DNA from: an uncultured Pseudomonadota bacterium
GTDB taxonomy: Bacteria; Pseudomonadota; Gammaproteobacteria; Steroidobacterales; Steroidobacteraceae
Direction: 5' to 3'
Assembly: GCA_963791615.1 (NCBI GenBank)
Contig: CAWBTE010000005.1
Location: 136,033-200,032, forward strand
Length of the DNA stretch: 64,000 nucleotides
Shown here one piece after another: positions 3,561 through 31,960 of the stretch (its first letter is position 1; each line of letters opens with the position of its first letter). The position numbers were made by a program, and so were the translations under genes. Under the pieces are notes generated by a model that worked only from the letters and a program-made list of their open reading frames with translations, searched no databases and was not told where the DNA came from.

Positions 3561-4580
3561 ATGCTCGCCGCTCTGGGTGCCCCAGGGTCTGTTAACCATG
3601 ATCCGATCGCTGCGACGGCGGTCAAAAGGACTCAGGACGCGGCGCACCGAGCGCGGTGTACTTAACGTACTCCAGCGAGGTGCAACAAAGTCCTGAGTCC
3701 TTTTGGCCCCGTCCCTCCGGGTTGGGCCTCTGAAAGCGCCATGCCGCGTTACTCGTCGCTTATTTGGAATGACCAAACCTCACTCCTCGCGCCTTGCCTG
3801 GCGCTTTCAGAGACTCCAACGCAGCGATCGGATCATGGTTAACAGACCCTAGTCATTGGCCTCAGTCTGGGGCTGCTGGGTTCAGGTGGATCAATTCTGA
3901 CTGTACCGGTACTGGTCTATCTGGTAGGCGAGCCGGAAAAGCTGGCCATTGCCGAATCCCTTGCCATCGTCGGCACCATTGCCGGCCTGGGCTCACTGAT
4001 GCATGCACGGGAAAAACATATCGACTGGCGCAGTGTCTGGCTGGTCGGGCCCTCGGCCATGATGGGTTCGTTTGCCGGCGCATGGCTGTCGCAGTGGCTG
4101 CGCGGTCGTGTGCAATTGCTGCTGTTCGCCGTAGTGATGCTGTTTGCAGCCTGGCGCATGTTCATGAATTCATGGAGCGGGACTGAACTGCAACCCAGCT
4201 ACTGCCGACCCTGGTGCCTGCTGGGCCTGGGAACGGGGATTGGTCTGCTGAGCGGACTGGTGGGTGTGGGAGGCGGCTTCCTGATCGTTCCTGCACTGGT
4301 GCTGCTGGGTGGACTGGCGATGCCGGTTGCGGTCGGCACCAGCCTGATGATCATCTGCCTCAGCTCATTCACCGGATTTGCCAAACATCTGCACCTGCTG
4401 CAAGCCAGCGGCACTACGCTTCACTGGCCGACACTGGGCATGTTTGTGCTGGTTGGCGCACTGGGCAGTCTCGCCAGCGTACCCATTGGAACCAGGCTGC
4501 CGCAGGTCAGACTGCAACAGACTTACAGTGTCATGGTGGTGCTGATGGCCGTATTCATTCTGTGGCACTCCTTGTCCTGA
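3561..4580 (+). pseudogene. TauE/SafE (DUF81) sulfite/anion exporter family gene, interrupted after codon ~8 by a 267-bp element
   Basis: ATG 3561 (MLAALGA..) lies 3 nt after the arsR stop. From 3852 the same frame reads VIGLSLGLLGSGGSILTVPVLVYLVGEPEKLAIAESL... through to the 193-aa track ORF (3999..4580, [15 protein letters not shown] motif). Between them, stops occur in all frames of the insert. Removing 3584-3850 gives a 250-aa ORF of typical TauE length. Confidence 0.8.
3584..3850. mobile_element. MITE-like non-autonomous element, 267 bp, perfect 31-bp terminal inverted repeats
   Basis: Left end AGGGTCTGTTAACCATGATCCGATCGCTGCG (3584-3614) is the exact reverse complement of 3820-3850. Internal arms: 3620-3638 pairs with 3690-3708 (18/19), and 3728-3741 pairs with 3799-3812 (14/14). 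Flanked by CCAG / CTAG. No credible ORF inside. Confidence 0.8.
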
Positions 4581-4588: not shown

Positions 4589-7033
4589 TCAGAACTGCCA
4601 GCGATATCCTGCGTAGTAGAAGTAACGCGTGGTTTTCTGCGCGTTGATTGCGGCATCGCGCTTTGAAAGTTCGGCACCCGCTTCCAGCTCAAACTGCACC
4701 GTGCGTCTTTGCAGACCGATACGCAATGATGGCGCATACAACCACAGGGTACTGGCATCACTCTTGAACTCACGCCGGTCAATGCGCAGCTGCGGCCCGA
4801 GACGCCAGTCACTCCACACTGGCACACGACTGCTCAAGCCCAGCGAAGTCGTCGTCACCGAACCACCACTCTGCTGACGAATTCCGATGATATTGACATC
4901 CCCACTGCGCATGACGCTGGCGGCCAGCAGTTGCGCCGAGGCTATGAACTCCGGACCTTCTGCCGGAAACCCGTCCACTGCGGGAAACGCCGGGTCAATC
5001 GCCGAACCATCAGAGGGCGGCGCCGCGCCGGTTGAAATACTTTGCGTGGTAACCGACAACTGAAACCGCTCACCAATGGCTCGCGATGCAGTCAGGCTGT
5101 ACACACTGGTGTCCGGCGTACGATCCAGAGCCAGCTGCTTGATCTGTTCGTCATTGAAGGCGCTGTCAAGCGCATCCAGCGAACGCACTGGCTGGCCAAT
5201 CAGTGCATTGCGGGTGGTCACCAGCGGACTCTTGCGCTGCTCCAGATCGATATTGAGCGTCCAGCGTGCAGGCAGTTGCAGCGTACCCACCACCACAGCG
5301 CTGTTGAGCGCCTGAAAGTGCAGGTCATAGTCAAAGAAACCGATGAGTACCCGCCCGGGACGGAAATAGCGCAACTCGGCACCAACGGCCTGACGATCAA
5401 TCCTGCCTTCAAATGTCTGGTTGACCAGATAAACGCTGGGCTCCCACGCATCTGCAAACGTACCGAAATTGAATGACAGTGATTCAAACAGGCGTCTGCT
5501 GTTCAGGCCACTGCGCGCACTGTCCACCGGCATGCCAATGGTGACATCGGACGTGAAATGTGGATGCCACTGGTAACTGGCGAGCAGACCATCAAACGTT
5601 CCGAACGAGCCACTACCGGAACGATTCTGCCGGCCAAGGCTGCCATACCAGCCGCGATCACGATCCGACCACTCCACAAACGCATTGCTGACATGCACCT
5701 GATCGCCTGGACCATTCTGCAGCAAGTCCTTGTTGTAGCCGGCACTGACACGAATGCGGGTATCAGTTGCAAAACTGCGATAGCGTGCGGTCAGATCAAA
5801 ATCATTGAGCAGCGCGTGCTGGGTAATCTGGTCCTGAGTGGTGGCATCTACCGTAATGCGACTGTCATCGCGTCGATAGTACTGGGCCAGACCACCATTC
5901 AACTTCCAGACTCCCTCCTCATCATCATTGCCACCCGCTCCTGCACGTCCGGGCAACGTCGCAGTGCGCAAGGCGTTCAGGCGCTTTCTGACCCGATTGG
6001 CACGACGATCCCTGGGGAATTCACGCAGGAAAAGCTCGTACTCGGCTTGCGCATGCGCCAGTTCGCCGCTGCGTTCATGCGCGATGCCAAGCAACTCCTG
6101 CGCCTGGACGCGATACTTGCGACTGGAACGCGCCAGCAGCTTGGTCAGCAATTCGATGGCCGGCGCGTACTGCCTGCGACGAAATTGTTCATTGGCGCTG
6201 GACCACAGTGCATCGGCTTCCTTGTCGGTGATACGGGTGTCGGCAGCATCATCCGTTGTCGAACCGGCGGTGGTTTCTGATTCGAGCGTCAGATCCTGCT
6301 CATCCACCGCTTCGTCGGCAATAGCCAGCCAGGCACGCGGGTAACTATGCTGGGCAGCAAGCAAGGTACGCTCCGCGTCTTCACGCAACACGATAGGCCC
6401 GTAACGCAGGCGATACCAGCGCGCGCCGTCGATATCGACCTCAGAAGTATAGACCCGTGCACCAAGGGCATCCTGCGCCTGCCTGACTACCGTCTCCGCA
6501 AACGGCGTCAGCGATGACTCAAGATTGATGGCATACGCCGTCGCGACATCGGCAATGGGTACTTCATTGACCAGAATCCTGCCCGCCGCGCCAGCCGTTT
6601 CGCCACTGCGCAGAATGCGGATGCGCAGACCACGCTGATCATTGGTCGGCACCACCAGGAATTGTTGTGACAGACGCCAGCGGATCAGCAGTTCGGCGTC
6701 ACTGGCCAGCAGGGGTGACAGCTCGATGCTGCGCACCACGGCGGGCGCGGGTGTAACCAGCGACTCAACCCCTGAACGTGATGGACCGCAGTCACTGCCC
6801 AATGTGATTCGCACGCGCAGTTCAGCGCCCTGCTCTACCGGCGTGTGCGAGACATAGCGAACCGTGCAGGCAAAGCGGATGGTGAGGTCGTAGCGGGCGG
6901 GCGTCTCGGCAACATCGGCTTCATCGAGAACGCGTGATGGCGCCTGTGCCGATACCATCGAAAAATATCCGCATAGCAGCAACGTTGCCAGGCCAGTGAA
7001 TTGAGCAGAACTCAGATACTTCCGAGAACTCAT
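4589..7033 (-). CDS. Secreted outer-membrane protein: N-terminal domain, TPR-like segment, C-terminal beta-barrel
   Basis: ORF 4589..7057. The ATG at 7033 gives MSSRKYLSSAQFTGLATLLLCGYFSMVSAQA (signal peptide). TPR-like helices occur around YAPAIELLTKLLARSSRKYRVQAQELLGIAHERSGELAHAQAEYELFLREFP. The C-terminal ~420 aa have alternating beta-strand patterns and end YFYYAGYRWQF (aromatic terminal residue). Confidence 0.7.
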   Translation of the reverse strand: MSSRKYLSSAQFTGLATLLLCGYFSMVSAQAPSRVLDEADVAETPARYDLTIRFACTVRYVSHTPVEQGAELRVRITLGSDCGPSRSGVESLVTPAPAVVRSIELSPLLASDAELLIRWRLSQQFLVVPTNDQRGLRIRILRSGETAGAAGRILVNEVPIADVATAYAINLESSLTPFAETVVRQAQDALGARVYTSEVDIDGARWYRLRYGPIVLREDAERTLLAAQHSYPRAWLAIADEAVDEQDLTLESETTAGSTTDDAADTRITDKEADALWSSANEQFRRRQYAPAIELLTKLLARSSRKYRVQAQELLGIAHERSGELAHAQAEYELFLREFPRDRRANRVRKRLNALRTATLPGRAGAGGNDDEEGVWKLNGGLAQYYRRDDSRITVDATTQDQITQHALLNDFDLTARYRSFATDTRIRVSAGYNKDLLQNGPGDQVHVSNAFVEWSDRDRGWYGSLGRQNRSGSGSFGTFDGLLASYQWHPHFTSDVTIGMPVDSARSGLNSRRLFESLSFNFGTFADAWEPSVYLVNQTFEGRIDRQAVGAELRYFRPGRVLIGFFDYDLHFQALNSAVVVGTLQLPARWTLNIDLEQRKSPLVTTRNALIGQPVRSLDALDSAFNDEQIKQLALDRTPDTSVYSLTASRAIGERFQLSVTTQSISTGAAPPSDGSAIDPAFPAVDGFPAEGPEFIASAQLLAASVMRSGDVNIIGIRQQSGGSVTTTSLGLSSRVPVWSDWRLGPQLRIDRREFKSDASTLWLYAPSLRIGLQRRTVQFELEAGAELSKRDAAINAQKTTRYFYYAGYRWQF

Positions 7034-7053
7034 CAACGCTGGGCTCTGCTCGA

Positions 7054-9120
7054 TCAAAACTCGTTATCCGTCACGCGATGCTCGCCATTGCGCGTAGTTC
7101 TGATCGTAGTCAGCGTAGCGTCCGTATAGATATGACACGCACCCGCACAGTTGCGCAGCTCGCTGACCGTGTACTTGGACACATTATTGACCTTGGTGTG
7201 CGGACCGGATTCATAGTCGTTCGCATGACAGCCGGCGCAGGCAGGTCGATAGGTGGCATTGCGCCAGGTAGCTGCATCGGTGTTGGTGGTATGGCAGCTG
7301 ATGCAGGTCAGGCCCAGTCGCGAGTTGTGGTTACCCGGATATTCACTGGAAGTATGCGTAAAGGTCAGCGGCGTCCACGCCGTGGTGGAGTGACAGACAA
7401 TGCACTCACGCGAGGTGGTCATGTGTCCGCTGTCCTTGCCGGTCGCAGAGGTGCCGTTATGGCATGCAGCACAGCCACCAGTAACGCCAACATGACTGAA
7501 CGTTGCCGGCTTCCAGGCCAGTGTTGAATGGCAGGAATCGCAAGAAGTGGTAGTCGGTATGTGCGTGACCGGCTTGCCGGTGGACGTCACACCATTGTGG
7601 CAAGTAGCACAGGTGCCTGCCTGCACGCCGGCATGATCGAAGCGGGCGGGTCGCCATGCAGTGCTGGTATGGCAGGTTTCGCAGGTATTGGCAGAAACAA
7701 TGTGATTGACCGACTTGCCGGTAGCCACTGTGCCGTTGTGGCAGGAATAGCAGCTGCCCGTCACCTGCGTGTGATCCACCGTGCTCACGGGCTTGAACGT
7801 TGCTGTCACGTGGCAGCTTTCGCACAAGTTGCTGGTACTGACATGCGCAAGGTTCTTGCCGGTCGCCGTCGTGCCATTGTGACAACTGAAACAGTTGCTG
7901 GTGATACCGTCATGACTGAAACGCGCCGGTGTCCAGGCCAGTGGCGAATGACAACTGCCACAGTCTGCGGTAGTCACCACATGCCCTGCCGGTTTGCCGG
8001 TTGCGGTCGTACCGTTGTGACAGGACGTACAACTGCCCGTCACTTGCGTGTGATCAACACGCGTCGCTGGCCGCCACGCAGCCGGCGTATGGCAGTTCTC
8101 GCACAAACCACTGGAAAGTATGTGCGTGGCGTTCTTGCCGGTTGCTCTCACACCATTGTGGCAACTCGAACAGCCGGAAGTAATGCCGGCATGGTCAAAA
8201 GTATTGGTTGTCCATGTCGAAGTGACATGGCACGTACCGCAATCGGCCGTTGTGGTGATATGCGTGGCGGACTTGCCCGTAGCCGTCGTGCCATTGTGGC
8301 AGCTGGCGCAGGCGCCCTGCACCTGGGCGTGATCCACTGTGCTCACCGGTCGCCAGACGCTGGTGACGTGGCAGGTCTCGCACAGGTTACTGCTGGCGAT
8401 GTGCGTAACGTTCTTGCCCGTAGAACGCACACCATCATGACAACTGGCGCAGTTGCTGCTGATACCGGCGTGAGTGAAGGTCGCCGGCCTCCAGGCGCTG
8501 GTGCCATGACAGGTATTGCACTCCGCCAGTGTTGGAATATGAGTGGCCGCCTTGCCAGTGGCCTGCACACTGTTGTGACAATTCGAGCAGCCTCCGGTGA
8601 TACCGGTGTGATCAAAACGCGCCGAGTTCCAGTTCAGAGTGCTGTGACAGGAGCGGCAATCCAGTGTGGTTTGCACATGTCCCGCCGGTTTGCCTATGGC
8701 TTGCAGATTGTTGTGACAGCTGGCGCAGGAACCAGTGACCTGCGAGTGATCAAAGCGACTGGCCGGGGTCCACGCTGTAGTGGTATGGCAATCAGCACAG
8801 TTGCTGCTGCTCAGCACATGATTGGGTGACTTGGCGCTGGCCAGTACCCGGGTACCGGCGGAGTGGCATCCGGCACAAGTGGCCGGCGTTCCCTTGAACA
8901 GCCCATCCACATGGCAGGTTTCGCAGCGCACCTGACGATGCTGGCCAGTCAGCTCGAAACCCGTGGTCAGGTGGTCGAACTGATTCATGATACTGACGCC
9001 AGAAGAGGCTTCATCGGCCGCTTGCACATCGGCTACCAGCAGCGTACCGACCATGATCAGGCACAACACCGGCCATAGTGTGCGTAATCGATACAGAGCA
9101 GGTGCGAACAGCGTGTTCAT
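7054..9120 (-). CDS. Secreted multihaem c-type cytochrome, 25 CXXCH + 1 CX3CH, ten tandem paired-CXXCH units
   Basis: ORF 7054..9180. The ATG at 9120 (MNTLFAPALYRLRTLWPVLCLIMVGTLLVADVQA) has GAGG upstream and lies 8 nt after the previous stop. I counted the motifs by hand: CETCH, CAGCH, CADCH, then 10 units of C-x-x-CH-N-G-x-x-ATGK-x-x-x-H...C-x-x-CH...W-x-P-x-x-F-D-H, then CISCH, CAGCH, CAGACH. Confidence 0.9.
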   Translation of the reverse strand: MNTLFAPALYRLRTLWPVLCLIMVGTLLVADVQAADEASSGVSIMNQFDHLTTGFELTGQHRQVRCETCHVDGLFKGTPATCAGCHSAGTRVLASAKSPNHVLSSSNCADCHTTTAWTPASRFDHSQVTGSCASCHNNLQAIGKPAGHVQTTLDCRSCHSTLNWNSARFDHTGITGGCSNCHNSVQATGKAATHIPTLAECNTCHGTSAWRPATFTHAGISSNCASCHDGVRSTGKNVTHIASSNLCETCHVTSVWRPVSTVDHAQVQGACASCHNGTTATGKSATHITTTADCGTCHVTSTWTTNTFDHAGITSGCSSCHNGVRATGKNATHILSSGLCENCHTPAAWRPATRVDHTQVTGSCTSCHNGTTATGKPAGHVVTTADCGSCHSPLAWTPARFSHDGITSNCFSCHNGTTATGKNLAHVSTSNLCESCHVTATFKPVSTVDHTQVTGSCYSCHNGTVATGKSVNHIVSANTCETCHTSTAWRPARFDHAGVQAGTCATCHNGVTSTGKPVTHIPTTTSCDSCHSTLAWKPATFSHVGVTGGCAACHNGTSATGKDSGHMTTSRECIVCHSTTAWTPLTFTHTSSEYPGNHNSRLGLTCISCHTTNTDAATWRNATYRPACAGCHANDYESGPHTKVNNVSKYTVSELRNCAGACHIYTDATLTTIRTTRNGEHRVTDNEF

Positions 9121-9128
9121 GGATACCT

Positions 9129-10700
9129 CTATTGCATCCGCACTTGCTTGAAGGAAATTGTGGTGTGACAACGCTGACACTGCCGGCCAAACTGACCGAA
9201 GTGCACGTCATCGCGCACATGACATGAACCACAATCGCGGGACAGCTTCACTTCACTGGCAGGCTGTTTATGGCAGCCAGCGCAGTCCAGCTTGGCATGT
9301 GCGCCAGTCAATGCAAAACGCGTGGCCTTGCCATGATCAAAGGTCCAGATATTCCAGCCGTTACTGTTGTGGCAACTTGCGCAGTTCTTGCCCAAGCCAC
9401 CCTTGTGTACATCGTCGGAAGCGTGGCAACTGCTGCAATCCGTTTTCACATCCTTGAATTGCTGCGTCAGGTGACACTGCTCGCAGGGAACAGCGACATG
9501 CAACCCCACCAGCGGAAAATCCGTCAGGTCGTGATCGAAGCGGATCTCGCCACGCCAGGTGTTCGCCACATGGCATTGATCACACTGCTCACCCAGTTTT
9601 CCGGCATGTGCATCCTGCGCGCGATGACAGCCGATACAGGTCGTACCCAGCTTCTGCGTGGCAATGTTGGCCGTATGGCAGGTATCGCAACTGAGTTTTG
9701 TGTGCGGCCCGGTCAGCGCAAATTCAGTATCGCGCGCATGGTCAAAGGTCGAAGTTTTCCAGTCGGTGCTGTTGTGGCACTGGTCGCACTTGTCGCCCAT
9801 ACGGCCGGCATGCGAATCCTGCGCCTTGTGGCAGCCGCTGCAGTCCTTGGGGATGGGATCATTCATGCGGCCCGTGGTATGACAACTTACGCAATCGGTG
9901 CGGGCATGCGCACCGTTCAACGCAAAGCCGGTTTCCCTGGCGTGATCAAACTTCGCAGTGGTCCAGCTGATTGTGGAATGGCATTGATCGCAAGTAGTGC
10001 CGCGCGTCGTCCGGTGCACATCATCTGGTGCATGGCAGGACACGCATTGCATCGGCGTGTTTTTATAGCGATTGCCCGCATGACAGGCTGAACACTGAAC
10101 TTCAGCATGTTTGTTGGCCAGGGAAAACCGCGTCTTGCCGTGGTCATATCTGGCATTCAGCCATGTGACAGAGCCATGGCAGGCCGCGCAGTCAGCGCCC
10201 AGTTGGCCGCCGTGTGGTTCATCCTTCTTGTGGCAGGCAACGCAGGTTGATTGTGCTTCGCGGTACTTCTTGCCTGTCTGATGACAACTGGCACAGGCCA
10301 CTGTGACATGCGCATCCCGCAAGGCAAAGTCAGTGCGCTGATGATCAAACTGCTCAGGAACAATCTTGACGATATCCCCATCGCGACCAATATGCTCGGT
10401 ATGACAGCCCTGACACTGTACGGTCGCGGCGTTGGGCATCTTGCCGTGAAAGCCGCTGCGCTTTTGCACATCAACCGCGACATCCTTGTGACAACTCAGG
10501 CACAAACTGGTCTGGGTTACCTTGTTGGTGCGGTCATGGCAATTGCTGCACTCGGCTTCCAGCTTGGCATGGGCATTACTGACCTTGCCGGGCATCAGCA
10601 ATGTCTCGAGGCTGGCCGCAGAAGCGACATGAGTTAATGACACAGCTAGCAACATAAGCAGTAGCGCAATCAGTCTGTTCCTGTATGAGTGCCAAACCAT
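9129..10700 (-). CDS. Secreted multihaem c-type cytochrome, 21 CXXCH, seven cytochrome c7-type trihaem modules
   Basis: 523 aa with signal peptide MVWHSYRNRLIALLLMLLAVSLTHVASAAS. 21 CXXCH counted by hand. The recurring module is F-DH..T.F.L.G.H....C..CH...(10-15)...C..CH..(D/Q)D.H.G..G..C..CH, as in polymerised c7 domains. Confidence 0.9.
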   Translation of the reverse strand: MVWHSYRNRLIALLLMLLAVSLTHVASAASLETLLMPGKVSNAHAKLEAECSNCHDRTNKVTQTSLCLSCHKDVAVDVQKRSGFHGKMPNAATVQCQGCHTEHIGRDGDIVKIVPEQFDHQRTDFALRDAHVTVACASCHQTGKKYREAQSTCVACHKKDEPHGGQLGADCAACHGSVTWLNARYDHGKTRFSLANKHAEVQCSACHAGNRYKNTPMQCVSCHAPDDVHRTTRGTTCDQCHSTISWTTAKFDHARETGFALNGAHARTDCVSCHTTGRMNDPIPKDCSGCHKAQDSHAGRMGDKCDQCHNSTDWKTSTFDHARDTEFALTGPHTKLSCDTCHTANIATQKLGTTCIGCHRAQDAHAGKLGEQCDQCHVANTWRGEIRFDHDLTDFPLVGLHVAVPCEQCHLTQQFKDVKTDCSSCHASDDVHKGGLGKNCASCHNSNGWNIWTFDHGKATRFALTGAHAKLDCAGCHKQPASEVKLSRDCGSCHVRDDVHFGQFGRQCQRCHTTISFKQVRMQ

Positions 10701-10703
10701 GAA

Positions 10704-11651
10704 CTAATACACATGCACCGCGATGACATGCACGATGCCGGCAATCAGCAGCATGAAGAACAGTGGCAGGTGCATCACATGCCACAATGAGAACAACTGG
10801 GTGTAAGCCTGAAATTCAGAGACCTCGCGCGTAGCGCGGAGCCGCTGGGAAACATAGCCGCGCGCTGTTTTCGACAGGCGTTGCTGCTGCCGGGCCATGA
10901 CATTTGACTGTGTAGCTGCTGCGCGCAAGGCACGCCGCACGTAGCGATTCAGCCGGCCACGCGCCAGCCAGCTCATGAAAAATGCACAGGTGGGGCGAAG
11001 CAACATCGGGCAATTTTCAACACGTTGCAGCAACTGCCGTTCTTCAGCGAGCAGACGATCGAACAACTCTGGCAGGAAGGTGACCGACAGTGAGACCTTG
11101 CGGAGCCGATCAGCATTGGCCTGCAATTCGGCCATCGTGGTGGCGCGTTCGCTCAGGCCATGGTGGATGCGCGTATAGATGTAGCGACCAACCAGGCCGC
11201 TGCCAGAGACAATCAGCATGCAGTACAACGCGACATTGCTGTTCACTGCGCCGGTACTGAAATTGGCGTGATACAGAACCAGGATTGGCCCCACCAGGCC
11301 CAGCACCATGTGTGTCTGGAACCAGGCCTTCACGCTGCCCATAAAAGACAGCCAGCGCCAGCGCTTGCGCGCCGGATACAACAGCAGCACCAGCATGGCG
11401 CTGCCGCCGACAATGCCCAGCACGTAACCCAGACCACGCTCCGGCGTCAGATAGCGATGTGTAGGCAGATTCAAGCCCAGTAGCAACGCCAACAGACAGG
11501 CCACGAAGAACAGCCCCTGAGCAGAAAGCAGAGGCCGCAGCCGGTGCGCCCAGCCGGCTCTGTTTACAACAGGTGTCGCCGGTGTCCCGGGTAACGACGA
11601 TACGGTATGACTTGCGATTGACCGTTTGGCGAGGTTGCTGTGCGCCATCAC
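10704..11651 (-). CDS. Polytopic inner-membrane protein with His-rich TM helices (function unknown; possible redox/haem-b protein)
   Basis: 315 aa with about 5 hydrophobic helices (LFFVACLLALLLGLNL, GYVLGIVGGSAMLVLLLY, THMVLGLVGPILVLYHANF, VALYCMLIVSGSGLVGRYIYTRIHH, LWHVMHLPLFFMLLIAGIVHVIAVHVY). The start overlaps the ccmI-like stop (TGATG). The start is either GTG 11651 or ATG 11648. Confidence 0.6.
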   Translation of the reverse strand: MMAHSNLAKRSIASHTVSSLPGTPATPVVNRAGWAHRLRPLLSAQGLFFVACLLALLLGLNLPTHRYLTPERGLGYVLGIVGGSAMLVLLLYPARKRWRWLSFMGSVKAWFQTHMVLGLVGPILVLYHANFSTGAVNSNVALYCMLIVSGSGLVGRYIYTRIHHGLSERATTMAELQANADRLRKVSLSVTFLPELFDRLLAEERQLLQRVENCPMLLRPTCAFFMSWLARGRLNRYVRRALRAAATQSNVMARQQQRLSKTARGYVSQRLRATREVSEFQAYTQLFSLWHVMHLPLFFMLLIAGIVHVIAVHVY

Positions 11652-12934
11652 GGCACCGCTCTGGAAATATTCAGCGCCACCGCCTGCGCTGCGCGCGTCG
11701 ATACAGTGACCGCAGCCGCCTGCAAGTCACCCGACTTGGCCAGTGCCTGGCCACTGCGGGAGAGACGCGCTTCCACAGTCACCTTCTCAAACTGCGACAA
11801 CTTGCGTGTCGGCATCATGGCCATGCTGTCATCCAGCACAAAACTGGCCGGCCAGGATTTGATAGTAGTGCGATAAGCCGCAACTGGCGCCGCCGAGTCG
11901 ACAGACTTGGCGTAGACAAACAGAACCATATCCGCAGTTACATATTTTCTGAGCGATGGATCAAGCGCAACGCTGCCACGAATCTGTGCGGTGGCCGCAG
12001 CCGACTGTACGACCTGCGTTGCTGCGGTAACAGGGGCAGCAGAGCTCGACAACGATCTGGATTCCGCAATGTTGGCGTCAATGATCTTCACATCCGGCGA
12101 AGTATCCGGTGTTACAGCACGTAGCTGCTGCCAGAGCTTCACGGCATCCGGGTAACGATGTTCTTCGTAAGCCAGGCTGGCTTTCAACCACAGGGCCTTG
12201 CTGTGCCCGGGTTCCAGCTTCAGCGCGGCTTCAAGCGCCGCACGCGTTTTTGAGTTCGTCAGCGTATCCGCCGCCGCAGCACTTGCATCAGCGTAGTCGG
12301 CCCATGCATCAGCATTCATGGCTTTGAGTTCAATTGCATGTTCATAGGCTGTAATCGCGCCAGCAAAGTCGCGGATTTTGCGCTGCAACTGCGCAATGGC
12401 CAGCCAGGCCGCCGCATCCCTGGGTTTGACTGCTACCACTTGTTGATACATTTTCAGTGTCGCTTGCTCGTCAATGTTGCCGGGGGCTGCGGGCATTGTT
12501 GCGGTGGAGGCAGTGTCAGCTTTCAGCTGATGCTGCCCGGCCAGTGCCGCACCTGCGGTATCACCCATGAATTCGTAAGATTGTTGTAGCAATTGCCAGT
12601 CGGCATCGCTGCCGTTACCCGATGCCAGTTTGCTGGCCAGTTTGGCCGTCGCCTCAGCCATCGAGCCAACGCTGCTGGCAGAGCCACCGGAAATATCTGG
12701 ATGGCTGCTCGTCATCGCGTTTGCTGCTGTCTGATCCGCCAGCTCGGGGCGTCCCACCGTGAAGTAAATAGTCATCGCAATCGCCAGGAATGCAGCCATG
12801 CCGGCAGCAAGTATCCATCTGGAGCGACTGGTCTGCGTGTTATCGGTCTGGTTATCACGACGCCACAGCTGTACGACAAAAAATGCCGCAGCCAGACCAG
12901 CCATGAAACCTGCGATGAACCAGAAATAATTCAT
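11648..12934 (-). CDS. ccmI: CcmI/CycH-like c-type cytochrome biogenesis (apocytochrome chaperone) TPR protein
   Basis: 428 aa. The N-terminal TM (MNYFWFIAGFMAGLAAAFFVVQLWRR) plus a second TM, the TPR-like repeats (AAWLAIAQLQRKIRDFAGAITAYEHAIEL, SKALWLKASLAYEEHRYPDAVKLWQQL) and the C-terminal LFVYAK...FVLDDSMAMMP...EARLSRSG segment are all characteristic of CcmI. Confidence 0.7.
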   Translation of the reverse strand: MNYFWFIAGFMAGLAAAFFVVQLWRRDNQTDNTQTSRSRWILAAGMAAFLAIAMTIYFTVGRPELADQTAANAMTSSHPDISGGSASSVGSMAEATAKLASKLASGNGSDADWQLLQQSYEFMGDTAGAALAGQHQLKADTASTATMPAAPGNIDEQATLKMYQQVVAVKPRDAAAWLAIAQLQRKIRDFAGAITAYEHAIELKAMNADAWADYADASAAAADTLTNSKTRAALEAALKLEPGHSKALWLKASLAYEEHRYPDAVKLWQQLRAVTPDTSPDVKIIDANIAESRSLSSSAAPVTAATQVVQSAAATAQIRGSVALDPSLRKYVTADMVLFVYAKSVDSAAPVAAYRTTIKSWPASFVLDDSMAMMPTRKLSQFEKVTVEARLSRSGQALAKSGDLQAAAVTVSTRAAQAVALNISRAVP

Positions 12935-13276
12935 GTTGTACTTTCAGCGTTCCTGATGATCAGCTCATGAAATGAGCGACAAAACCAGCCAGCGGTTGTG
13001 ATCAACGATGTCAATGCAAAGCATGAGACAGCAAGGAATATTAAGACGTACTGCAAGTCTCACAACGCAGACTCGGGAATGCAGCAAACCACGTTTATAT
13101 GCTTAATTTCCATTAAGCGTTTTTGTTGTGCGGATGTAGAGACAGCAACTAATTAACCTGACTAACGTGCAACAACGCACATAATCTGCATCACTCATTG
13201 CAGACAATGATCACTGTAATCAAGCCATGTGATTTGGCTGGTCATTAGACGAAATTTTCTGCTGCGGAGATTCTGA

Positions 13277-14587
13277 TTGAACGGCTTGCTGTACATAGTT
13301 TACGGACTACCTTTGTTGCTCATCTGGTGGCTTTACACCAGAAGCAGGAAAGCCGTGCACAGCGCCAACGTCGAAGTGTTCGAGGACTCACGCAGTGCCG
13401 GATTGCTTGAGCCGGCATCATTACATCCGGTGATTGATCCGAATCTCTGCGTCGGATGCGGCTCCTGCGTCAAAGCCTGCCCTGAACAACCCGAACACAG
13501 TGTGCTCGGTTTGATCAATGGCAAGGCTCAGTTGATCAGCCCCACCGATTGCATTGGTCATGGCGCCTGCAAGGTCGCCTGTCCCATGGATGCCATTTCA
13601 CTGGTGTTTGGCAGCGCCACGCGTGGCGTGGATATTCCCCTGATCAATTCGCACTTCGAAACCAATGTACCGGGCATTTTCGTAGCGGGCGAACTGGGCG
13701 GCATGGGACTTATTCGCAATGCACTTGAGCAAGGCAGTCAGGCGGTCGAGGCCATTTGTCAGCATCGGCCCCGTGGCAAGCAGGAACTTGACCTGGTCAT
13801 CGTGGGTGCGGGCCCAGCCGGCTTTTCCGCATCGCTGGCTGCGCTAGCAAAGAATCTGCGCTTTGTTACGCTTGAACAGGACTCATTGGGCGGCTGCGTA
13901 TTCCAGTATCCGCGCGCCAAGCTGGTCATGACCGCGCCTGCAACCCTGCCCATCGTCGGAAAAATAAATTTCAAACAGACTTCGAAGGAAGCACTGCTGG
14001 ATTTCTGGGTCGAGACCGAACGCAAGACCGGCGTGAAGATCAACTACAAGGAACGGGTCGATGTGATTCTCAACCTGAAAGACCAGGGCTTCCTGGTGCG
14101 CACGCCACTTGGCGAATATCTGACCCGTAACATCCTGCTCGCCATTGGTCGGCGTGGCACGCCGCGCAAGCTGGGTGTGCCCGGCGAAGAATTGCCCAAG
14201 GTGGTGTATCGCCTGATTGATCCCGAGCAATACGCTCATCAGCGCGTATTGATTGTGGGCGGCGGCGACAGCGCCCTTGAAGCCGCAACCAGCATTGCTG
14301 CAGTTGACGGCGCGCACGTCACCCTGTCATATCGCGGCGCAGTCTTTGATCGCGCCAAACCCAGCAATCGCCAGCGACTGGAGGCTGCCGTGAAAACCGG
14401 CAGCGTTGACCTGCTGATGAGTACACAGGTACAACAGATTGAACAGGATGCGGTCATCCTGCTGCAAGGCGACAAGAGTGTCGCGGTAGAAAATCAGTCC
14501 GTAATTGTGAATGCGGGCGGTGTCCTGCCCAACGATTTTCTGCGCAAGGTCGGCATTGAAATCGAGACCAAGTATGGCACCGCATAA
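13277..14587 (+). CDS. Membrane-anchored 2x[4Fe-4S] ferredoxin domain fused to an FAD/NAD(P)-binding (thioredoxin-reductase-like) oxidoreductase
   Basis: 436 aa, TTG start with GGAG 7 nt upstream. It has an N-terminal TM (LLYIVYGLPLLLIWWLY), two Cys clusters (CVGCGSCVKACP, CIGHGACKVACP) and two dinucleotide folds (LVIVGAGPAGFSASL, VLIVGGGDSALEAA). Confidence 0.85.
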   Translation: MNGLLYIVYGLPLLLIWWLYTRSRKAVHSANVEVFEDSRSAGLLEPASLHPVIDPNLCVGCGSCVKACPEQPEHSVLGLINGKAQLISPTDCIGHGACKVACPMDAISLVFGSATRGVDIPLINSHFETNVPGIFVAGELGGMGLIRNALEQGSQAVEAICQHRPRGKQELDLVIVGAGPAGFSASLAALAKNLRFVTLEQDSLGGCVFQYPRAKLVMTAPATLPIVGKINFKQTSKEALLDFWVETERKTGVKINYKERVDVILNLKDQGFLVRTPLGEYLTRNILLAIGRRGTPRKLGVPGEELPKVVYRLIDPEQYAHQRVLIVGGGDSALEAATSIAAVDGAHVTLSYRGAVFDRAKPSNRQRLEAAVKTGSVDLLMSTQVQQIEQDAVILLQGDKSVAVENQSVIVNAGGVLPNDFLRKVGIEIETKYGTA

Positions 14588-16595
14588 CCACAACAACCTT
14601 CCTCGTGTTTCTGCATTGGTGATCCCATATGTGATGGGTTGTTTGCTGTCTGCCTTACTGTGCAGCCAGTGCATTGCGGCTGCACCCATTCAACAACCCG
14701 CAACCGATGCGCTTGAGCCGGTGCGCGTCGCAATGCGCACCAAGAACTTCAAACGCGCCCGGGAATTGCTCGAACCACTGGCGAATGCTTCACAAAGTCA
14801 CGCTGAATATCTGCTGGGCACGCTGCATCGCGCCGGGCTGGGCACCGACACCGATCTGAAACAGGCGCGCACCTGGATAGGTCGTGCTGCCGAACATGGC
14901 GATGCTGATGCTGCTTATGCACTGGCTGCCATGCTCGTGGATGAAGAACCGGGCAACACGCAAATCCGGCAATGGCTGCAACGCGCCGCAGACAAGGGCC
15001 ATGCGCTGGCCACCAGAGCCCTCAAGGAGGGCGTGCAACCATTGCGCTTTCATCCTGAAAAGTCGCTGACCGATACCGTGGCACGACAAACTGCGTACTG
15101 GCTGGCAGCGCGACAGGATGATGCGGAACTGCTCAAGCTGTTGCAGGATGAATCGCTGTTGAAAAGTACGGATGAATTTGGTCGCAGCGCCCTGTCGCAT
15201 GCGTCACAGCAGGGGGCTGCTCGCGCGGTAATCTGGCTACTGCAATCAGGAGCCGCAGTAGATCAGCCTGATTCCTATGGAATCACTCCATTGATGCTGG
15301 CGACATCAGGCGGTCACGATGCCGTCATCACCGCACTGCTGGATGCCGGCGCCAACGCCAACCACCAGGATCGCAACAACAACACGGCGCTGATGTATGC
15401 CGCAGCCTACGACCACGCGCAGAGTGGCGAGTTGTTGCTGAACCGCGCTGCGAATATCCAGCTGCTGAATGCGCAATCCTGGTCAGCGCTGGACTGGGCA
15501 GTGCATGCCAGTTGTACGGGGCTGGTCAACAGTCTCAAGGCGCGCGGTCTGACGACAGCACGCAAAGCCAGTGTGGTCACTGATGCAATCAGCATACCCT
15601 TGCAGCATGCAGCGACTAACGACCTGTATCGAGGCTGGCCCGACCTGCTGATCGCAGCCAGCCGGTCTTCACCGGAGATGCTCACCGAAGTTGTGAAGGC
15701 CAAAGGCGTCTCGGCGGTGAGCGGCCCCAACGGCGAAACTCCCGTACTGGTTGCCGTCACATCCGGCAGTGTAACGGTGCTGGAAAAGCTGCTGGACTCT
15801 GGCGCTTCGGCGGCAGCCAGCAAGAACTGGTCAGAAAGTCCCTTGAGCTGGGCGGTGCGCCACAACCAGAGCAACATGGTGCAACTGTTATTGAACAGGG
15901 GCGTAGACCCCAATGCGTCTGGTGCATCCGAAGCGGCGCCACTGCTGGATGCGGTTCGCCACAATAGTGAATCCATGGTGAGCATGTTGCTGAGAGCCCG
16001 AGCCAGCACCGATGCGCGAGATACTTCTGATCGCACACCAGCCATGCTGGCGGCCAGCCAGAATCAGCCCCGGTTACTGACGTTGCTCATGACCGCAGGC
16101 GCTAATGCCGATGCCGTGGATAAGCAGGGTCGTAATACGTTGTGGTATGCCGCTGCAACAGGCGCCGACGATTGTCTGCGCCTGCTGCTCAACACCAGAC
16201 CCGATGTGAACAAACGCGACAAGGACGGTGTTTCTCCACTGCTGAAGGCAGCCTCTACCGGCCATGATAATACGGTCGCGCTGTTGCTTGCTGCCGGCGC
16301 CAGCATGAATGACTCGGCAGCAATGACTACCGCCTTGATGCTGGCAGCGGCGAATGGTCATGAAAACGTCGTCAAACAATTACTGGCCGCGGGTAGCAAG
16401 GTGGATGCTCAGAACAAGTTTGGCGATACCGCGCTGATGTTTGCTGTCCGCCATGGCCAGATGCAGACTGCCCGCGCATTGCTGGCGGCGGGCGCCAGTA
16501 CCGAACTACGCAACGCAGATCGCGTCTCGGCGCTGGATATTGCCGAGAAATTGCAACACAAGGACTTACTGTCAGTGCTTGCAAAGCAAGGCTAA
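14574..16595 (+). CDS. Secreted Sel1-repeat + ankyrin-repeat protein (about 13-15 ANK repeats)
   Basis: Track ORF 14511..16595. I prefer ATG 14574 (MAPHNHNNLPRVSALVIPYVMGCLLSALLCSQCIAAAP, signal-like), which overlaps the upstream stop by 14 nt; ATG 14634 is an alternative. Sel1-like segment: AEYLLGTLHRAGLGTDTDLKQARTWIGRAAEHGDADAAYALAAML. Many ANK consensus units are present (G.TPLM.A...GH..V...LL.AGA..N..D). Confidence 0.8.
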   Translation: MAPHNHNNLPRVSALVIPYVMGCLLSALLCSQCIAAAPIQQPATDALEPVRVAMRTKNFKRARELLEPLANASQSHAEYLLGTLHRAGLGTDTDLKQARTWIGRAAEHGDADAAYALAAMLVDEEPGNTQIRQWLQRAADKGHALATRALKEGVQPLRFHPEKSLTDTVARQTAYWLAARQDDAELLKLLQDESLLKSTDEFGRSALSHASQQGAARAVIWLLQSGAAVDQPDSYGITPLMLATSGGHDAVITALLDAGANANHQDRNNNTALMYAAAYDHAQSGELLLNRAANIQLLNAQSWSALDWAVHASCTGLVNSLKARGLTTARKASVVTDAISIPLQHAATNDLYRGWPDLLIAASRSSPEMLTEVVKAKGVSAVSGPNGETPVLVAVTSGSVTVLEKLLDSGASAAASKNWSESPLSWAVRHNQSNMVQLLLNRGVDPNASGASEAAPLLDAVRHNSESMVSMLLRARASTDARDTSDRTPAMLAASQNQPRLLTLLMTAGANADAVDKQGRNTLWYAAATGADDCLRLLLNTRPDVNKRDKDGVSPLLKAASTGHDNTVALLLAAGASMNDSAAMTTALMLAAANGHENVVKQLLAAGSKVDAQNKFGDTALMFAVRHGQMQTARALLAAGASTELRNADRVSALDIAEKLQHKDLLSVLAKQG

Positions 16596-16605: not shown

Positions 16606-17214
16606 CTATTGATCTGATACGGTAACCGCAGCGATAAAGCCATTCAGACCGAGCGTGTCGCCCCGCCACATGGCAAACATGCGCTCACCTTCCGCCATGC
16701 CAACGGGGCTCAGCGTCCAGCTGCGTGCGGTAGCCAGTGTGCGCAATTGTTGCAGCGTGACTGTGTAATACATCTGACGGGCATTGGGCGCCGGCAGGGT
16801 GAATACGGAAGTGCTGACACTGATACCTTGCTGTGTGGTGGCGCTGCGCTTGAGCAGCAACGGCTGATCGTCAGCCCACAAGGTGACGCTGGCGAAATCC
16901 GCTTCGGTTCTGGCCCACTGTTCAGCGCTGCGATCAATCGTGCTCCACAGCGTAAAGGCCAGATACCGGGTGCGTGCGCCGGAACGATTGATCTCGAACG
17001 CACCCAGCTCGACATAGTCACGCACATTCACGCCAGCGGGAAAATCCTCACGCGATAACACCAGCGAACCTGCCTGGGCGGTTATCGCTACCGCCGTGCC
17101 ACTGTCCACCCAGCTGCGCGGCGCGTCTTTCGGCGTCGTCTGGCACCCGGCCAAGCACAGGCCCAGGACCAGACCCGCCAGGGAACTCAATCGCCGTGAA
17201 CTGAAATTAGGCAT
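16606..17214 (-). CDS. Hypothetical lipoprotein
   Basis: ORF 16606..17253. The ATG at 17214 gives MPNFSSRRLSSLAGLVLGLCLAGCQT (lipobox LAGC). I recognise no family. Confidence 0.55.
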   Translation of the reverse strand: MPNFSSRRLSSLAGLVLGLCLAGCQTTPKDAPRSWVDSGTAVAITAQAGSLVLSREDFPAGVNVRDYVELGAFEINRSGARTRYLAFTLWSTIDRSAEQWARTEADFASVTLWADDQPLLLKRSATTQQGISVSTSVFTLPAPNARQMYYTVTLQQLRTLATARSWTLSPVGMAEGERMFAMWRGDTLGLNGFIAAVTVSDQ

Positions 17215-17332
17215 GGACAAATTGTGCGCAGCCAGCGAGCAAAAAGCCACCACTCATCGCAAGCGGCACGCGCTTAAGATTGCTTTGTGTCAAAATCACC
17301 ACGGTTCGGCGACTCAACTTCGGCAAGCACAC

Positions 17333-18307
17333 ATGAAACTACAACAGCTGCGCTACCTGGCTGCCGTCGCCCAGACGGGCTTGAACATCACCGCTGCTGC
17401 GGAAAAGCTGCACACTTCGCAGCCGGCGGTCAGCAAGCAACTGAAGTTGCTGGAAGACGAACTGGGCTTCAACATCTTCGTGCGCAGCGGCCGCACGCTG
17501 ACCAAAATCACGCCAGCGGGCCAGAAGGTCATCGAGCGTGCACTGCATATCCTGCGCGAAGTGCAGAACATCAAGAGCATTTCCGCCGATCTCAAAGACG
17601 AAGATCGCGGCACGCTGTCCATCGGCACCACTCACACCCAGGCTCGCTATGTGCTGCCCTCGGTGATCCAGCAGTTCCGCGCCAAGTACCCCAATGTGGA
17701 TCTGCATCTGCATCAGGGCACTTCGGAACAGATTGCAGAAATGGCTTCGCTTGATCGCATCGATGTCGCCGTCGCCACCGGCTCGCATGACCTGTTCCGC
17801 AAATATGTGCTGCTACCCTGCTATCAATGGCATCGCCAGCTTGTGGTGCCGGCAAGTCACCCGCTGGCGCAGATCAAGAAGCCGACACTGAAACAGCTGG
17901 CGCAGTATCCGATTGTCACCTATGTATTCAGCTTCACCGGTCCGTCGTCGCTGCAACAGATTTTTTCCAAGGCCGGACTCATTCCCAATGTGGCGCTGAC
18001 GGCGCGCGATGCGGATGTCATCAAGACTTATGTACGTCTTGGTTTTGGCGTCGGGATTCTGGCTGACGTCGCAGTGGATCCGAAAGAAGACCGCGACCTG
18101 GTCTCCATTGATGCTTCGCATCTGTTCCCGATCCATACCACCTGGATTGGCTTCTCACGCGATGGCGTACTGCGCCGCTATGTGTATGACTTCATGCAAC
18201 TGCTGGCGCCGCACCTCAATCGTCGCCTGGTGGATCGTGCTGGCAACACACAATCACAGGAAGAAGTGGAGGCGTTGTTTGCGGAGATTCCCTTGCCAGT
18301 GCGGTAG
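17333..18307 (+). CDS. cysB: LysR-family regulator of the CysB/Cbl type
   Basis: The in-frame ATG at 17333 gives MKLQQLRYLAAVAQTGLNITAAAEKLHTSQPAVSKQLKLLEDELGFNIFVRSGR (324 aa), with the CysB-like co-inducer domain TLSIGTTHTQARYVLP...TYVRLGFGVGILA. The upstream part of track ORF 17096.. is an artefactual extension. Confidence 0.85.
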   Translation: MKLQQLRYLAAVAQTGLNITAAAEKLHTSQPAVSKQLKLLEDELGFNIFVRSGRTLTKITPAGQKVIERALHILREVQNIKSISADLKDEDRGTLSIGTTHTQARYVLPSVIQQFRAKYPNVDLHLHQGTSEQIAEMASLDRIDVAVATGSHDLFRKYVLLPCYQWHRQLVVPASHPLAQIKKPTLKQLAQYPIVTYVFSFTGPSSLQQIFSKAGLIPNVALTARDADVIKTYVRLGFGVGILADVAVDPKEDRDLVSIDASHLFPIHTTWIGFSRDGVLRRYVYDFMQLLAPHLNRRLVDRAGNTQSQEEVEALFAEIPLPVR

Positions 18308-18416
18308 CGACTTTTTTCCGCCATTTACAACCAATTTATAACCCGGGCTCGACTGACTTTGTTACCAGCGCACTCCTAGCATATGACTCATCGTTCACGA
18401 GTCATCTGGAGTTCGC

Positions 18417-19953: not shown

Positions 19954-19988
19954 TCAATACCTTCAACCACTATTTTCTGGAGCACACC

Positions 19989-21008: not shown

Positions 21009-21033
21009 CACGGCAGTAGGCGCCAATGACAAA

Positions 21034-21064
21034 GGGACGATCAGGTAGCTGATCGTCCCTTTTT
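21034..21064. terminator. Rho-independent terminator hairpin between convergent genes
   Basis: GGGACGATCAG-gtag-CTGATCGTCCC followed by TTTTT; an AAA run precedes the stem, so it could act in both directions. Confidence 0.75.
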
Positions 21065-21095
21065 ATATCGGGGATATACGGACAAGCAGTCTGCG

Positions 21096-21560: not shown

Positions 21561-21724
21561 GGTGTTCTTGGCGTCTCAATGGATCAGGAGGCACACGATC
21601 CATGTGCACGAACTATAACCAAACCAGGTGCGAAAACGATCAGCCATTGACTGAACGGTTGCACTCGTCTGTGACAGCCGACACACTCGGAGTTCTTGCA
21701 GACTAAGGACTTATACGCTTTTTC

Positions 21725-29389: not shown

Positions 29390-29395
29390 GATGGC

Positions 29396-30856: not shown

Positions 30857-30985
30857 GCCTTCCTCTCCACAAATTCAGTCCGGATAATACATGAGGGAGA
30901 AGCACATAACGCGCCGGATCAAGGTGAGCGGCAACCTCAGCTGAGTGGATTGCGCTATCGGATAACGTCGAACCAGGCGCGATGA

Positions 30986-31885: not shown

Positions 31886-31960
31886 GCGGGACTCCAGAGG
31901 CAAGCCGGATGGTGCGTTATATACACACTATCCGGCTCATTCTTCATCAGCAAAACTTCA

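Follow-up and report, generated by a model that had tools for sequence, protein, structure and literature searches.

The DNA analysed here, referred to below as the window, is a 64,000-nucleotide stretch of contig CAWBTE010000005.1 (positions 136,033 to 200,032, forward strand; GenBank assembly GCA_963791615.1) from an uncultured gammaproteobacterium assigned to the Steroidobacteraceae. It contains a compact block of five minus-strand genes encoding, in order of transcription, a CcmI-family protein, an inner-membrane protein (IMP), two multihaem cytochromes (MHC-A and MHC-B) and a protein of the outer membrane that has a C-terminal β-barrel. Two further genes, designated FerPyr and Ank, are transcribed divergently from this block. 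The locus is a porin–cytochrome cluster of the PCC3 type, and the evidence for that assignment, for the extent of the conserved unit and for the direction in which it might carry electrons is presented in the following paragraphs. Coordinates are collected in Table 1.

The five open reading frames (ORFs) of the block run co-directionally from position 12934 down to 4589, with intergenic distances of −1 to 20 nt. The junction between the CcmI-family and IMP genes reads GTGCCGTGATGGCG, i.e. a TGATG overlap at 11648. The IMP and MHC-A genes are separated by 3 nt (TAG TTC ATG), and the MHC-A and MHC-B genes by 8 nt (TAG AGGTATCC ATG), with a GAGG ribosome-binding site; the TGA codon of MHC-B is followed, after 20 nt, by the ATG of the barrel gene at 7033. 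The tight packing of these genes, and the presence of 21 CXXCH motifs in one cytochrome and of 25 CXXCH motifs plus one CX3CH in the other, are as described in a first-pass annotation of the window, made from the sequence alone. That annotation placed the end of the unit at 12934; the five genes do form part of it, but the conserved unit extends to approximately position 16595 on the plus strand. No convincing terminator was found on the minus strand within the five-gene block, and the promoter and terminator scans performed no better on the window than on shuffled sequence. To judge from its position, the spacer between the two divergent units presumably houses the promoters of both.

Table 1. 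Features of the PCC3-type locus (window coordinates)
Feature	Position	Strand	Description
Outer-membrane protein (PCC3 'porin')	4589..7033	-	814 aa; 20 nt downstream of MHC-B
MHC-B (PCC3 'extracellular' cytochrome)	7054..9120 (/9180)	-	688 aa from ATG with GAGG ribosome-binding site; Sec signal
MHC-A (PCC3 'periplasmic' cytochrome)	9129..10700	-	523 aa; Sec signal; 21 CXXCH
IMP (PCC3 inner-membrane protein)	10704..11648	-	314 aa; five transmembrane helices (motifs and AlphaFold2)
CcmI/CycH-family apocytochrome c chaperone paralogue	11648..12934	-	428 aa; first gene of the operon (Pfam and transmembrane prediction)
Divergent intergenic spacer	12935..13276		342 bp, between two conserved transcription units; weak sigma-70-like matches, no more numerous than in shuffled sequence
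FerPyr	13277..14587	+	436 aa; TTG start with GGAG ribosome-binding site; membrane anchor, two predicted [4Fe-4S] clusters, FAD/NAD(P) domain
Ank	14574..16595	+	approximately 673 aa from ATG 14574; Sec-type signal, Sel1, nine Ank_2 stretches

MHC-A is built from seven c7-like trihaem repeats of approximately 67 aa, with a motif spacing of 16–18/17–18/32–33 and 24.9 aa per haem. It matches Pfam Cytochrome_C7 (3.1e–30) and, weakly, the nanowire_3heme model TIGR04257 (24 bits, against a cutoff of 40). The count is constant, as 52 of 52 homologues with intact sequence have exactly 21 CXXCH motifs. In MHC-B the CXXCH motifs form a paired array, with a haem spacing of 23–24 aa (26.5 aa per haem overall) and a composition dominated by Thr (16.1 %), Ala (10.0 %), Ser (9.7 %) and Gly (8.0 %), which together account for 44 % of its residues; it matches Paired_CXXCH_1 (1.5e–24) as well as Cytochrome_C7 (1.1e–34). 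The two proteins are thus a c7 polymer and a paired-CXXCH array, as had been proposed from their motifs. Homologues of MHC-B carry between 11 and 61 CXXCH motifs (median 41), and a single CX3CH is present in every one of 53 homologues. In the window protein the CX3CH (NCAGACH, at residue 658 of the 688-aa form) is situated in a C-terminal module of approximately 130 aa (7054–7450) that shows 57 % mean identity and a conserved terminal Phe; MHC-B might dock by this module to the barrel or to the BamD-like TPR domain that the barrel protein carries. A fixed inner cytochrome combined with a variable outer one is the pattern that would be expected of a ruler spanning the periplasm and an external array with a free end. 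It has been argued on grounds of length that a cytochrome of 21–27 haems could span the periplasm (Hoover et al. 2023, mSystems 8:e00038-23). The possibility that MHC-B is an MtrC-like lipoprotein was considered and ruled out, since the protein has no lipobox.

The AlphaFold2 model of the outer-membrane protein (pLDDT 79.3) comprises a Sec signal, an N-terminal β domain (residues ~36–141), a SPOR-like domain (~167–238), five BamD-like TPR helices (~270–358) and, at the C-terminus, a barrel in which about 22 strands can be counted (~375–814); the chain ends in GYRWQF. A helical insert (607–637) is modelled in one long loop on the extracellular side of the barrel. A secreted protein with a TPR arm and a C-terminal barrel ending in YRWQF had been predicted, and the modelled β-barrel does occupy the last ~440 residues, behind a TPR region; the SPOR-like and N-terminal β domains had been missed. 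SPOR (PF05036) was found in 22 of 22 aligned homologues (best E value 8.9e–9), with TPR/YfiO matches alongside, and the window protein matches the BamD model TIGR03302 at 4.7e–7. Foldseek retrieved only generic barrels of 16–24 strands (porins, ushers and AlgE). At E≤1e–30 the barrel family comprises 836 clusters (50 % identity). Domain counts over its 147 top representatives, which are lower bounds, reveal a constant core of TPR plus barrel (145 of 147), whereas SPOR (at least 93) and the N-terminal β domain (at least 68) are variable parts. A geometry estimate gives a Cα diameter of approximately 43 Å for 22 strands, the size of a TonB-dependent receptor barrel, which would admit a slender chain of haems if the helical insert at 607–637 leaves the lumen free.

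The first gene of the operon had been annotated as a CcmI-like chaperone, and its product has the features by which CcmI/CycH proteins are recognized: Pfam matches above cutoff to Ig_CycH (PF23892; 2.3e–29, 101.8 bits, cutoff 27) and TPR_CcmH_CycH (PF23914; 8.4e–16, 58.6 bits, cutoff 42), hence TPR and Ig-like domains, together with two N-terminal transmembrane (TM) helices at residues 3–21 and 41–59. No ccm genes were found elsewhere in the 64-kb window. The paralogue may be dedicated to this cluster, because it occupies the same position in 55 of the 56 related loci described below and because its place is taken by ccsBA in the Emticicia cluster, which is also described below.

The IMP carries the motifs WFQTH-x13-H at residue 109 (TM3), SGLVG at 150 (TM4) and WHVMH-x13-H at 289 (TM5). 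It had been called a His-rich polytopic membrane protein; the membrane protein stands, but 'His-rich' was an overstatement, as there are 12 His in 314 aa and it is the four invariant TM His that matter. These four residues, H113 and H127 (TM3) and H293 and H307 (TM5), and the motif residues are invariant in 56 sequences. The AlphaFold2 model (pLDDT 83) has five membrane helices and, formed by extensions of TM4 and TM5, a predicted Arg-rich helical bundle of approximately 130 aa (158–290). The positive-inside rule, applied to that model, would put the bundle in the cytoplasm, H113 and H293 near the cytoplasmic face of the membrane and H127 and H307 near its periplasmic face. The IMP is predicted to hold two b haems, one at either face of the membrane. 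The window protein matched no Pfam or NCBIfam family, although weak Pfam matches to DUF4405 were seen in 22 of 56 members; a profile search of the PDB returned only noise, and Foldseek with the AlphaFold2 model gave no match with E<0.7.

PCC3 was defined by He et al. (2017, Front Microbiol 8:1584) as a set comprising a porin, an 'extracellular' MHC (median 34 haems, with repeats rich in T/S/A/G), a periplasmic MHC (median 21 haems; 21, 24 or 27 haems in repeats of ~66 aa) and an IMP of ~300 aa whose five TM helices include SGXXG in TM4 and WX3HX13H in both TM3 and TM5. Examples include Slit_0867–0870 and Slit_1446–1449 of Sideroxydans lithotrophicus ES-1, and clusters in Leptothrix cholodnii SP-6 and the Riftia endosymbiont. 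The gene order of the window, IMP, periplasmic MHC, extracellular MHC and porin, is that of Slit_1446 (IMP), 1447 (cyt-c_p), 1448 (cyt-c_e) and 1449 (porin). The repeat periods of the window cytochromes, ~67 aa and ~46–47 aa, compare with 66 aa in the 21-haem periplasmic MHC of the Riftia endosymbiont and 47 aa in the extracellular MHC of L. cholodnii SP-6, whose porin is likewise predicted to have 22 strands; the outer cytochrome of the window is T/S/A/G-rich, with ~26 aa per haem. Because all of the defining features that can be tested here are present, the locus is a PCC3-type cluster, and therefore a design that has already been described bioinformatically (He et al. 2017; Hoover et al. 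2023), not a new one. The first-pass annotation had held that the parts differ from those of PCC3, which is wrong: the order, the 21 haems, the ~67-aa repeats, the T/A/S/G-rich array and the IMP motifs all match. Its broader proposal of a non-Mtr porin–cytochrome conduit operon fits all of the tests made and coincides with the published hypothesis. The window does differ from the published examples in its Steroidobacteraceae-like, probably heterotrophic host, and it has features that are not mentioned in the PCC3 papers, i.e. the CcmI-family gene at the head of the operon, the SPOR, TPR and N-terminal β domains of the barrel protein, and the divergent FerPyr–Ank pair. TPR, SPOR, CcmI and ankyrin receive no mention in either He et al. 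(2017) or Hoover et al. (2023).

The distinction from Mtr-type systems, by contrast, was correctly drawn. MtrB_PioB (PF11854) was matched neither by the window protein nor by 22 homologues at E≤1, and MtrB was not among the top 50 Foldseek matches. MHC-B scored well below the cutoffs of the DmsE/MtrA model TIGR03508 (122.7 against 192.2 bits) and the OmcA/MtrC model TIGR03507 (43.4 against 209.3 bits), and MHC-A matched neither. MtrCAB, MtoAB and PioAB resemble the locus in that a periplasmic MHC and an outer-membrane barrel (with an outer cytochrome in MtrCAB) are co-encoded for conduction of electrons across the outer membrane. They differ in having 10 haems per cytochrome, compared with 21 and 26 here, and in that MHC-B is not a lipoprotein; their inner-membrane partner is a NapC/NirT protein (CymA or ImoA), whereas that of the window is a predicted b-haem protein. 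MHC-A resembles the GSU1996 family of Geobacter in being a polymer of c7-type trihaem domains, seven in MHC-A and reportedly four in GSU1996. The Uet clusters differ in that they use an undecahaem cytochrome and a different set of accessory proteins. In PCC4 the IMP bears the same motifs, and an Fe-S gene adjoins, or is fused with, the IMP gene (He et al. 2017), but there is no extracellular cytochrome.

Relatives of the barrel protein were sought in one genome per species; 243 were found, and the best 80 loci were examined. Nearly all of these 80 derive from Steroidobacteraceae or from unclassified gammaproteobacterial metagenome-assembled genomes (MAGs), and the closest is 75 % identical. 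Neighbourhood counts refer to the 56 loci with enough upstream DNA. Among these, the CcmI-family gene was present in 55, the IMP gene in 55, and the MHC-A and MHC-B genes in all 56, with order and strand kept in essentially all. Conservation of the five genes as a unit, which the first-pass annotation had put forward as a check, is therefore apparent in ~55 of 56 loci. Fifty of the 56 contain a FerPyr homologue, which is divergent from the CcmI-family gene and next to it in every locus in which the two were detected. An Ank homologue is encoded in 41 (and also in locus L081); most loci lacking FerPyr or Ank end before that position. The conserved unit is thus seven genes, the operon plus the divergent FerPyr–Ank pair. 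In L029 the IMP and FerPyr genes are both lost, and in L074 the CcmI-family gene alone is lost. A search seeded with a distant representative (P0259) reached not the Betaproteobacteria but a second Steroidobacteraceae clade, whose paralogous barrels are SPOR-less; it shows the same seven-gene layout.

Two of the additional loci have features that the window does not. In L082 (15913–22169), a metagenome scaffold that encodes a SPOR-less paralogue (P0255), genes for type II secretion system (T2SS) components G, F and E and a secretin are situated ~3.7 kb downstream of the barrel gene. In L081 and L082 an extra gene of ~200–230 aa lies directly 3′ of the barrel gene. Neither this gene nor the T2SS set is present in the window.

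FerPyr begins with a membrane anchor, behind which lie an Arg cluster, two Fe-S motifs (CX2CX2CX3CP and, at residues 92–103, CX2HX2CX3CP) and an FAD/NAD(P) domain, with Pfam matches to Pyr_redox_3 (2.8e–39) and Fer4. Both the anchor and His95 of the second motif are conserved in 48 of 48 homologues. The second motif points to a [4Fe-4S] cluster with a His ligand, as is found in [NiFe]-hydrogenases in the distal clusters that are exposed at the surface. Such a cluster, together with a membrane anchor, would suit intermolecular exit of electrons at the membrane. The closest PDB neighbours are YpdA/Bdr and ferredoxin-NADP reductases of the TrxR type, and the FAD/NAD(P) domain has no redox CXXC. 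FerPyr is predicted to be cytoplasmic and is a candidate for the NAD(P)H-side partner of the IMP. A role as a thiol-disulfide reductase for the reduction of CXXCH motifs was also considered; it was ruled out, since there is no CXXC and the active-site Cys of YpdA is absent. The FerPyr and Ank genes overlap by 14 nt, which indicates translational coupling. Ank matches Ank_2 (6e–92) and Sel1 in Pfam, and 19 of 24 homologues begin with a signal-like sequence; a periplasmic location is predicted for this repeat protein.

Plasmid-borne relatives provide additional data on the linkage between IMP and flavoprotein genes. Whereas a tblastn search of plasmids with the barrel protein gave no match, IMP homologues were identified on five plasmids. 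On pEMTOL02 of Emticicia oligotrophica, a member of the Bacteroidota (NC_018749.1, 78197–90781; loci L083/L085), a co-directional PCC3-like cluster encodes CcsBA, a homologue of the IMP in which both WX3HX13H motifs are present, FerPyr, a 23-haem MHC that is a homologue of MHC-A, a 40-haem MHC, a putative outer-membrane barrel of 538 aa and a GW-domain protein. Its FerPyr orthologue is 46.5 % identical to that of the window (E value 4e–140), with the same anchor and Fe-S motifs. The putative barrel shows no detectable sequence relation to the window barrel, and the System II maturase ccsBA stands in place of CcmI. The phylum, the maturation system and the barrel are all different, yet the functional set is the same, and pEMTOL02 thereby supports a place for FerPyr in the electron path.

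In the other four plasmids, all proteobacterial (two from Variovorax, one each from Methylophaga and Legionella), a gene annotated as encoding a 2Fe-2S cluster-binding protein lies directly upstream of a short IMP-like gene, which is followed by a cytochrome c gene or, in Legionella, by an unannotated gene. The flavoprotein of Variovorax WDL1, the only one analysed with Pfam, contains FAD_binding_6, NAD_binding_1 and 2Fe-2S domains and a weak match to the ferric reductase NAD-binding domain (PF08030, 1e–5), and is not homologous to FerPyr. A flavo-Fe-S gene thus adjoins the IMP gene in five of five plasmid-borne IMP homologues, and two non-homologous types of flavoprotein are involved. In L084, L086 and L087 (Variovorax sp. 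WDL1, Methylophaga pinxianii and Legionella pneumophila) these genes form a triad encoding an FNR-like protein (~610–690 aa), an IMP-like protein (~250 aa) and a small cytochrome c, surrounded by copper- and metal-resistance genes. The triad has the look of a relative of the inner-membrane module of PCC3, reduced to a minimum.

The IMP shares with the ferric-reductase-domain (FRD) family (MsrQ/YedZ, NOX and FRE) two predicted bis-His sites made from His pairs on two TM helices. Like MsrQ–Fre and NOX, the window would combine a small membrane protein of this kind with a cytoplasmic NAD(P)H flavoprotein, from which electrons pass to a periplasmic or extracellular acceptor. There are also differences: the IMP has five TM helices, not six, FerPyr has two predicted [4Fe-4S] clusters and its own anchor, and the acceptor would be a 47-haem wire. 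It is gene linkage that points to a NOX-like coupling of IMP and FerPyr, and the label NOX/MsrQ-like is an analogy only.

With moderate confidence, the locus is interpreted as encoding a haem wire that spans the envelope, is possibly fed by NAD(P)H and runs outwards. The parts, their motifs and their linkage have been described above; the binding of cofactors, the contacts between proteins, the location of MHC-B and the direction of flow may be envisaged as follows. The parts are made from one operon, as its tight spacing and conserved order show. The CcmI-family chaperone, in view of its family and conserved position, would help System I to attach the 47 haems of both cytochromes. The IMP would hold two b haems between TM3 and TM5, at the four invariant His, and move electrons across the inner membrane. 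FerPyr would hand it electrons from NAD(P)H, as Fre does to MsrQ or the dehydrogenase domain does in NOX, and quinol input may be possible alongside. MHC-A, a rigid string of seven trihaem units, would be a periplasmic wire of fixed length that could span this compartment. The MHC-B array, held by its C-terminal docking module, may pass through the ~22-strand barrel, or sit on it, to reach the outside, and the SPOR and TPR domains would tie the barrel to peptidoglycan and to its cytochrome partner. Electrons from NAD(P)H would pass FAD, a pair of [4Fe-4S] clusters and both b haems, then the 21 c haems of MHC-A and the 26 of MHC-B, and so reach the outside. Gene linkage and thermodynamics suggest that the net flow is outward, with O2, humics or minerals of Fe(III)/Mn(IV) as acceptors.

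The direction follows from the coupling of FerPyr to the IMP, if this is accepted, since an inward flow from Fe(II) to NAD(P)+ would be doubly uphill: NAD(P)+ (about –320 mV) would have to be reduced by Fe(II), and the electrons would move inward against the membrane potential. The coupling is supported by pEMTOL02, by the four other plasmids, by the joint loss in L029 and by the Fe-S gene of PCC4. Outward flow is also in keeping with the heterotroph genes of the window and with the reported movement of electrons by PCC3 parts in heterologous expression, to which the next paragraph returns. A more specific version, in which the locus is a split exporter of the NOX/MsrQ–Fre kind, can be suggested only tentatively. 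The IMP would be its transmembrane half and FerPyr its cytoplasmic half, the path from NAD(P)H to the outside would be quinone-independent and include ~50 redox centres, and the maturation factor and an ankyrin scaffold would be integral to it.

A number of results weigh against this interpretation. In L018 a transporter gene occupies the position of FerPyr–Ank. MHC-B has no lipobox and no secretion system is encoded nearby, so that its extracellular location is only putative. No match to PF01794 was obtained for the IMP in 56 members, even at E≤10; hhalign gave a probability of 1.1 % against E. coli MsrQ and no significant result against YodB, and no solved fold was matched. Membership of PCC3 rests on the defining features, and not on measured homology to the type proteins of ES-1 and SP-6. 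PCC3 itself is described as 'functionally unverified' in papers of 2025 and listed as a predicted, uncharacterised porin–cytochrome cluster in a paper of 2026. Finally, the inner-membrane and periplasmic parts of PCC3 reportedly carry electrons when expressed heterologously, according to a one-line secondary summary; this result, obtained without FerPyr as far as is known, favours a quinol-linked IMP or a non-obligatory FerPyr.

In the published model of PCC3, electrons from Fe(II) or reduced minerals would instead pass inwards through MHC-B and MHC-A to an IMP acting as a quinone reductase, and FerPyr and Ank would be unrelated or concerned with maturation. PCC3 was first recognized in iron oxidisers and is common among the Gallionellaceae and in Leptothrix, a quinone-active dihaem cytochrome b was proposed (He et al. 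2017), and in Sideroxydans CL21 the IMP of PCC3 copy 2 is up-regulated when iron oxidation is possible. However, both PCC3 clusters of ES-1 are down-regulated on Fe(II), which agrees with outward flow, and in the proteome of that strain the abundance of the extracellular cytochrome Slit_1448 is 0 in all conditions shown, and the percentiles of the remaining PCC3 proteins that are listed are low to middling (magnetite-grown cells). In the supplements of the ES-1 and CL21 transcriptome papers the genes flanking PCC3 carry no annotation. Inward flow in the present locus is considered unlikely, given that its nearest relatives are Steroidobacteraceae MAGs, that the window encodes heterotrophic sugar catabolism and no lithotrophy genes, and that in more than one phylum the IMP is linked to a cytoplasmic protein of the NAD(P)-flavo-Fe-S kind; inward flow from Fe(II) to NAD(P)+ would be strongly uphill. 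A somewhat better case, but still one that is probably incorrect, can be made for an outward wire supplied by quinol only, with the IMP as a quinol dehydrogenase comparable to CymA, CbcL and ImcH, and with FerPyr and Ank serving in maturation, redox sensing or repair. The heterologous result just mentioned would be explained if the inner-membrane and periplasmic parts suffice for electron movement, analogies have been drawn with cytochrome b subunits, namely those of bc1 and of [NiFe]-hydrogenase (He et al. 2017), MsrQ has recently been reported to have a ubiquinone cofactor, and L018 has no adjacent FerPyr. It is more difficult to reconcile such a supply with the flavo-Fe-S genes, of two non-homologous types, that lie beside the IMP gene in all five plasmid homologues and in ~50 chromosomal loci, with the loss of IMP and FerPyr together in L029, and with the invariant motif for a His-ligated [4Fe-4S] cluster and the anchor of FerPyr, which would suit electron exit at the membrane.

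The TPR-barrel protein might alternatively be an exporter or assembly device, as in BcsC, PgaA, AlgK/AlgE or Slam, that translocates MHC-B as a free or surface-attached haem filament. Those proteins likewise combine a TPR region in the periplasm with a barrel at the C-terminus, the TPR domain is BamD-like, AlgE is among the Foldseek matches, and the C-terminal module of MHC-B, which ends in Phe in a protein without a lipobox, could be a recognition signal; the T2SS cluster near one relative points to a separate export route. A BcsC/PgaA-type barrel had been suggested as a point to check, and the resemblance proved to be one of layout: no Pfam match to BCSC_C, PgaA, DUF560/Slam or alginate export was obtained in 22 homologues. 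The Foldseek TM-scores are low and generic (0.23–0.38 for AlgE), and those exporters have 14–18 strands, fewer than the ~22 predicted here. An export device is thus quite improbable, and it would in any case be compatible with the conduit model. Taken together, these comparisons leave the outwardly directed wire, possibly fed by NAD(P)H, as the interpretation that is favoured here.

Several other genes of the window are situated near the cluster. On the minus strand at 1–1631, a gene for an AcrB-type RND pump is broken into two ORFs in different frames, of which 846–1631 corresponds to positions 12–229 of the Pfam profile and 1–849 to positions 244–498; this implies a frameshift near 846–906, and hence a pseudogene or an assembly error. 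A HlyD-type fusion protein is encoded upstream of it (1624–2775). A TauE/SafE-family ORF (3900–4580, plus strand) has its ATG at 3999 and covers only profile positions 55–236. Its homologue in L001 aligns in-frame back to 3900, so that either the true start is upstream, without an ATG, GTG or TTG, or the N-terminus is damaged. Beyond Ank, the context is of an ordinary housekeeping kind. The region 17096–23565 encodes a CysB regulator, together with a porin O/P, an ABC ATPase and a binding protein of the sulfate type.

Genes for sugar catabolism are found at 27678–41189 (glk, pgl, zwf, a ROK kinase, a TonB receptor, an alpha-amylase-family gene, an MFS transporter, LacI, edd and eda). Because the window contains these Entner–Doudoroff and other heterotroph genes, the host is probably an organoheterotrophic gammaproteobacterium related to the Steroidobacteraceae. 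An island of low G+C content at 41312–44101 (0.506, compared with ~0.58 elsewhere; GC3 0.47) encodes a 700-aa protein with a C-terminal restriction endonuclease domain of the Mrr type; this is probably a defence gene that was gained by horizontal transfer. Three minus-strand ORFs in a row (44656–47033), none of them with a Pfam match, come after it. Rfam and tRNA scans of the window detected nothing.

PCC3 is among the most widespread of the gene sets predicted to function in extracellular electron transfer. The comparisons made here add a seven-gene module, a fixed 21-haem ruler with a variable outer array, a SPOR–TPR barrel and a linkage of FerPyr, IMP and MHC across phyla that also takes in a putatively dedicated gene for cytochrome maturation, and they make the direction of PCC3 and its source of electrons directly testable. 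If FerPyr does feed the wire, PCC3 would be an NAD(P)H-driven electron exporter in common heterotrophs of soil and sediment, and not the iron oxidase that has been assumed since 2017. The use of PCC3 genes as metagenomic markers of iron oxidation would then need to be reread, and the Steroidobacteraceae would be unrecognised electroactive heterotrophs.

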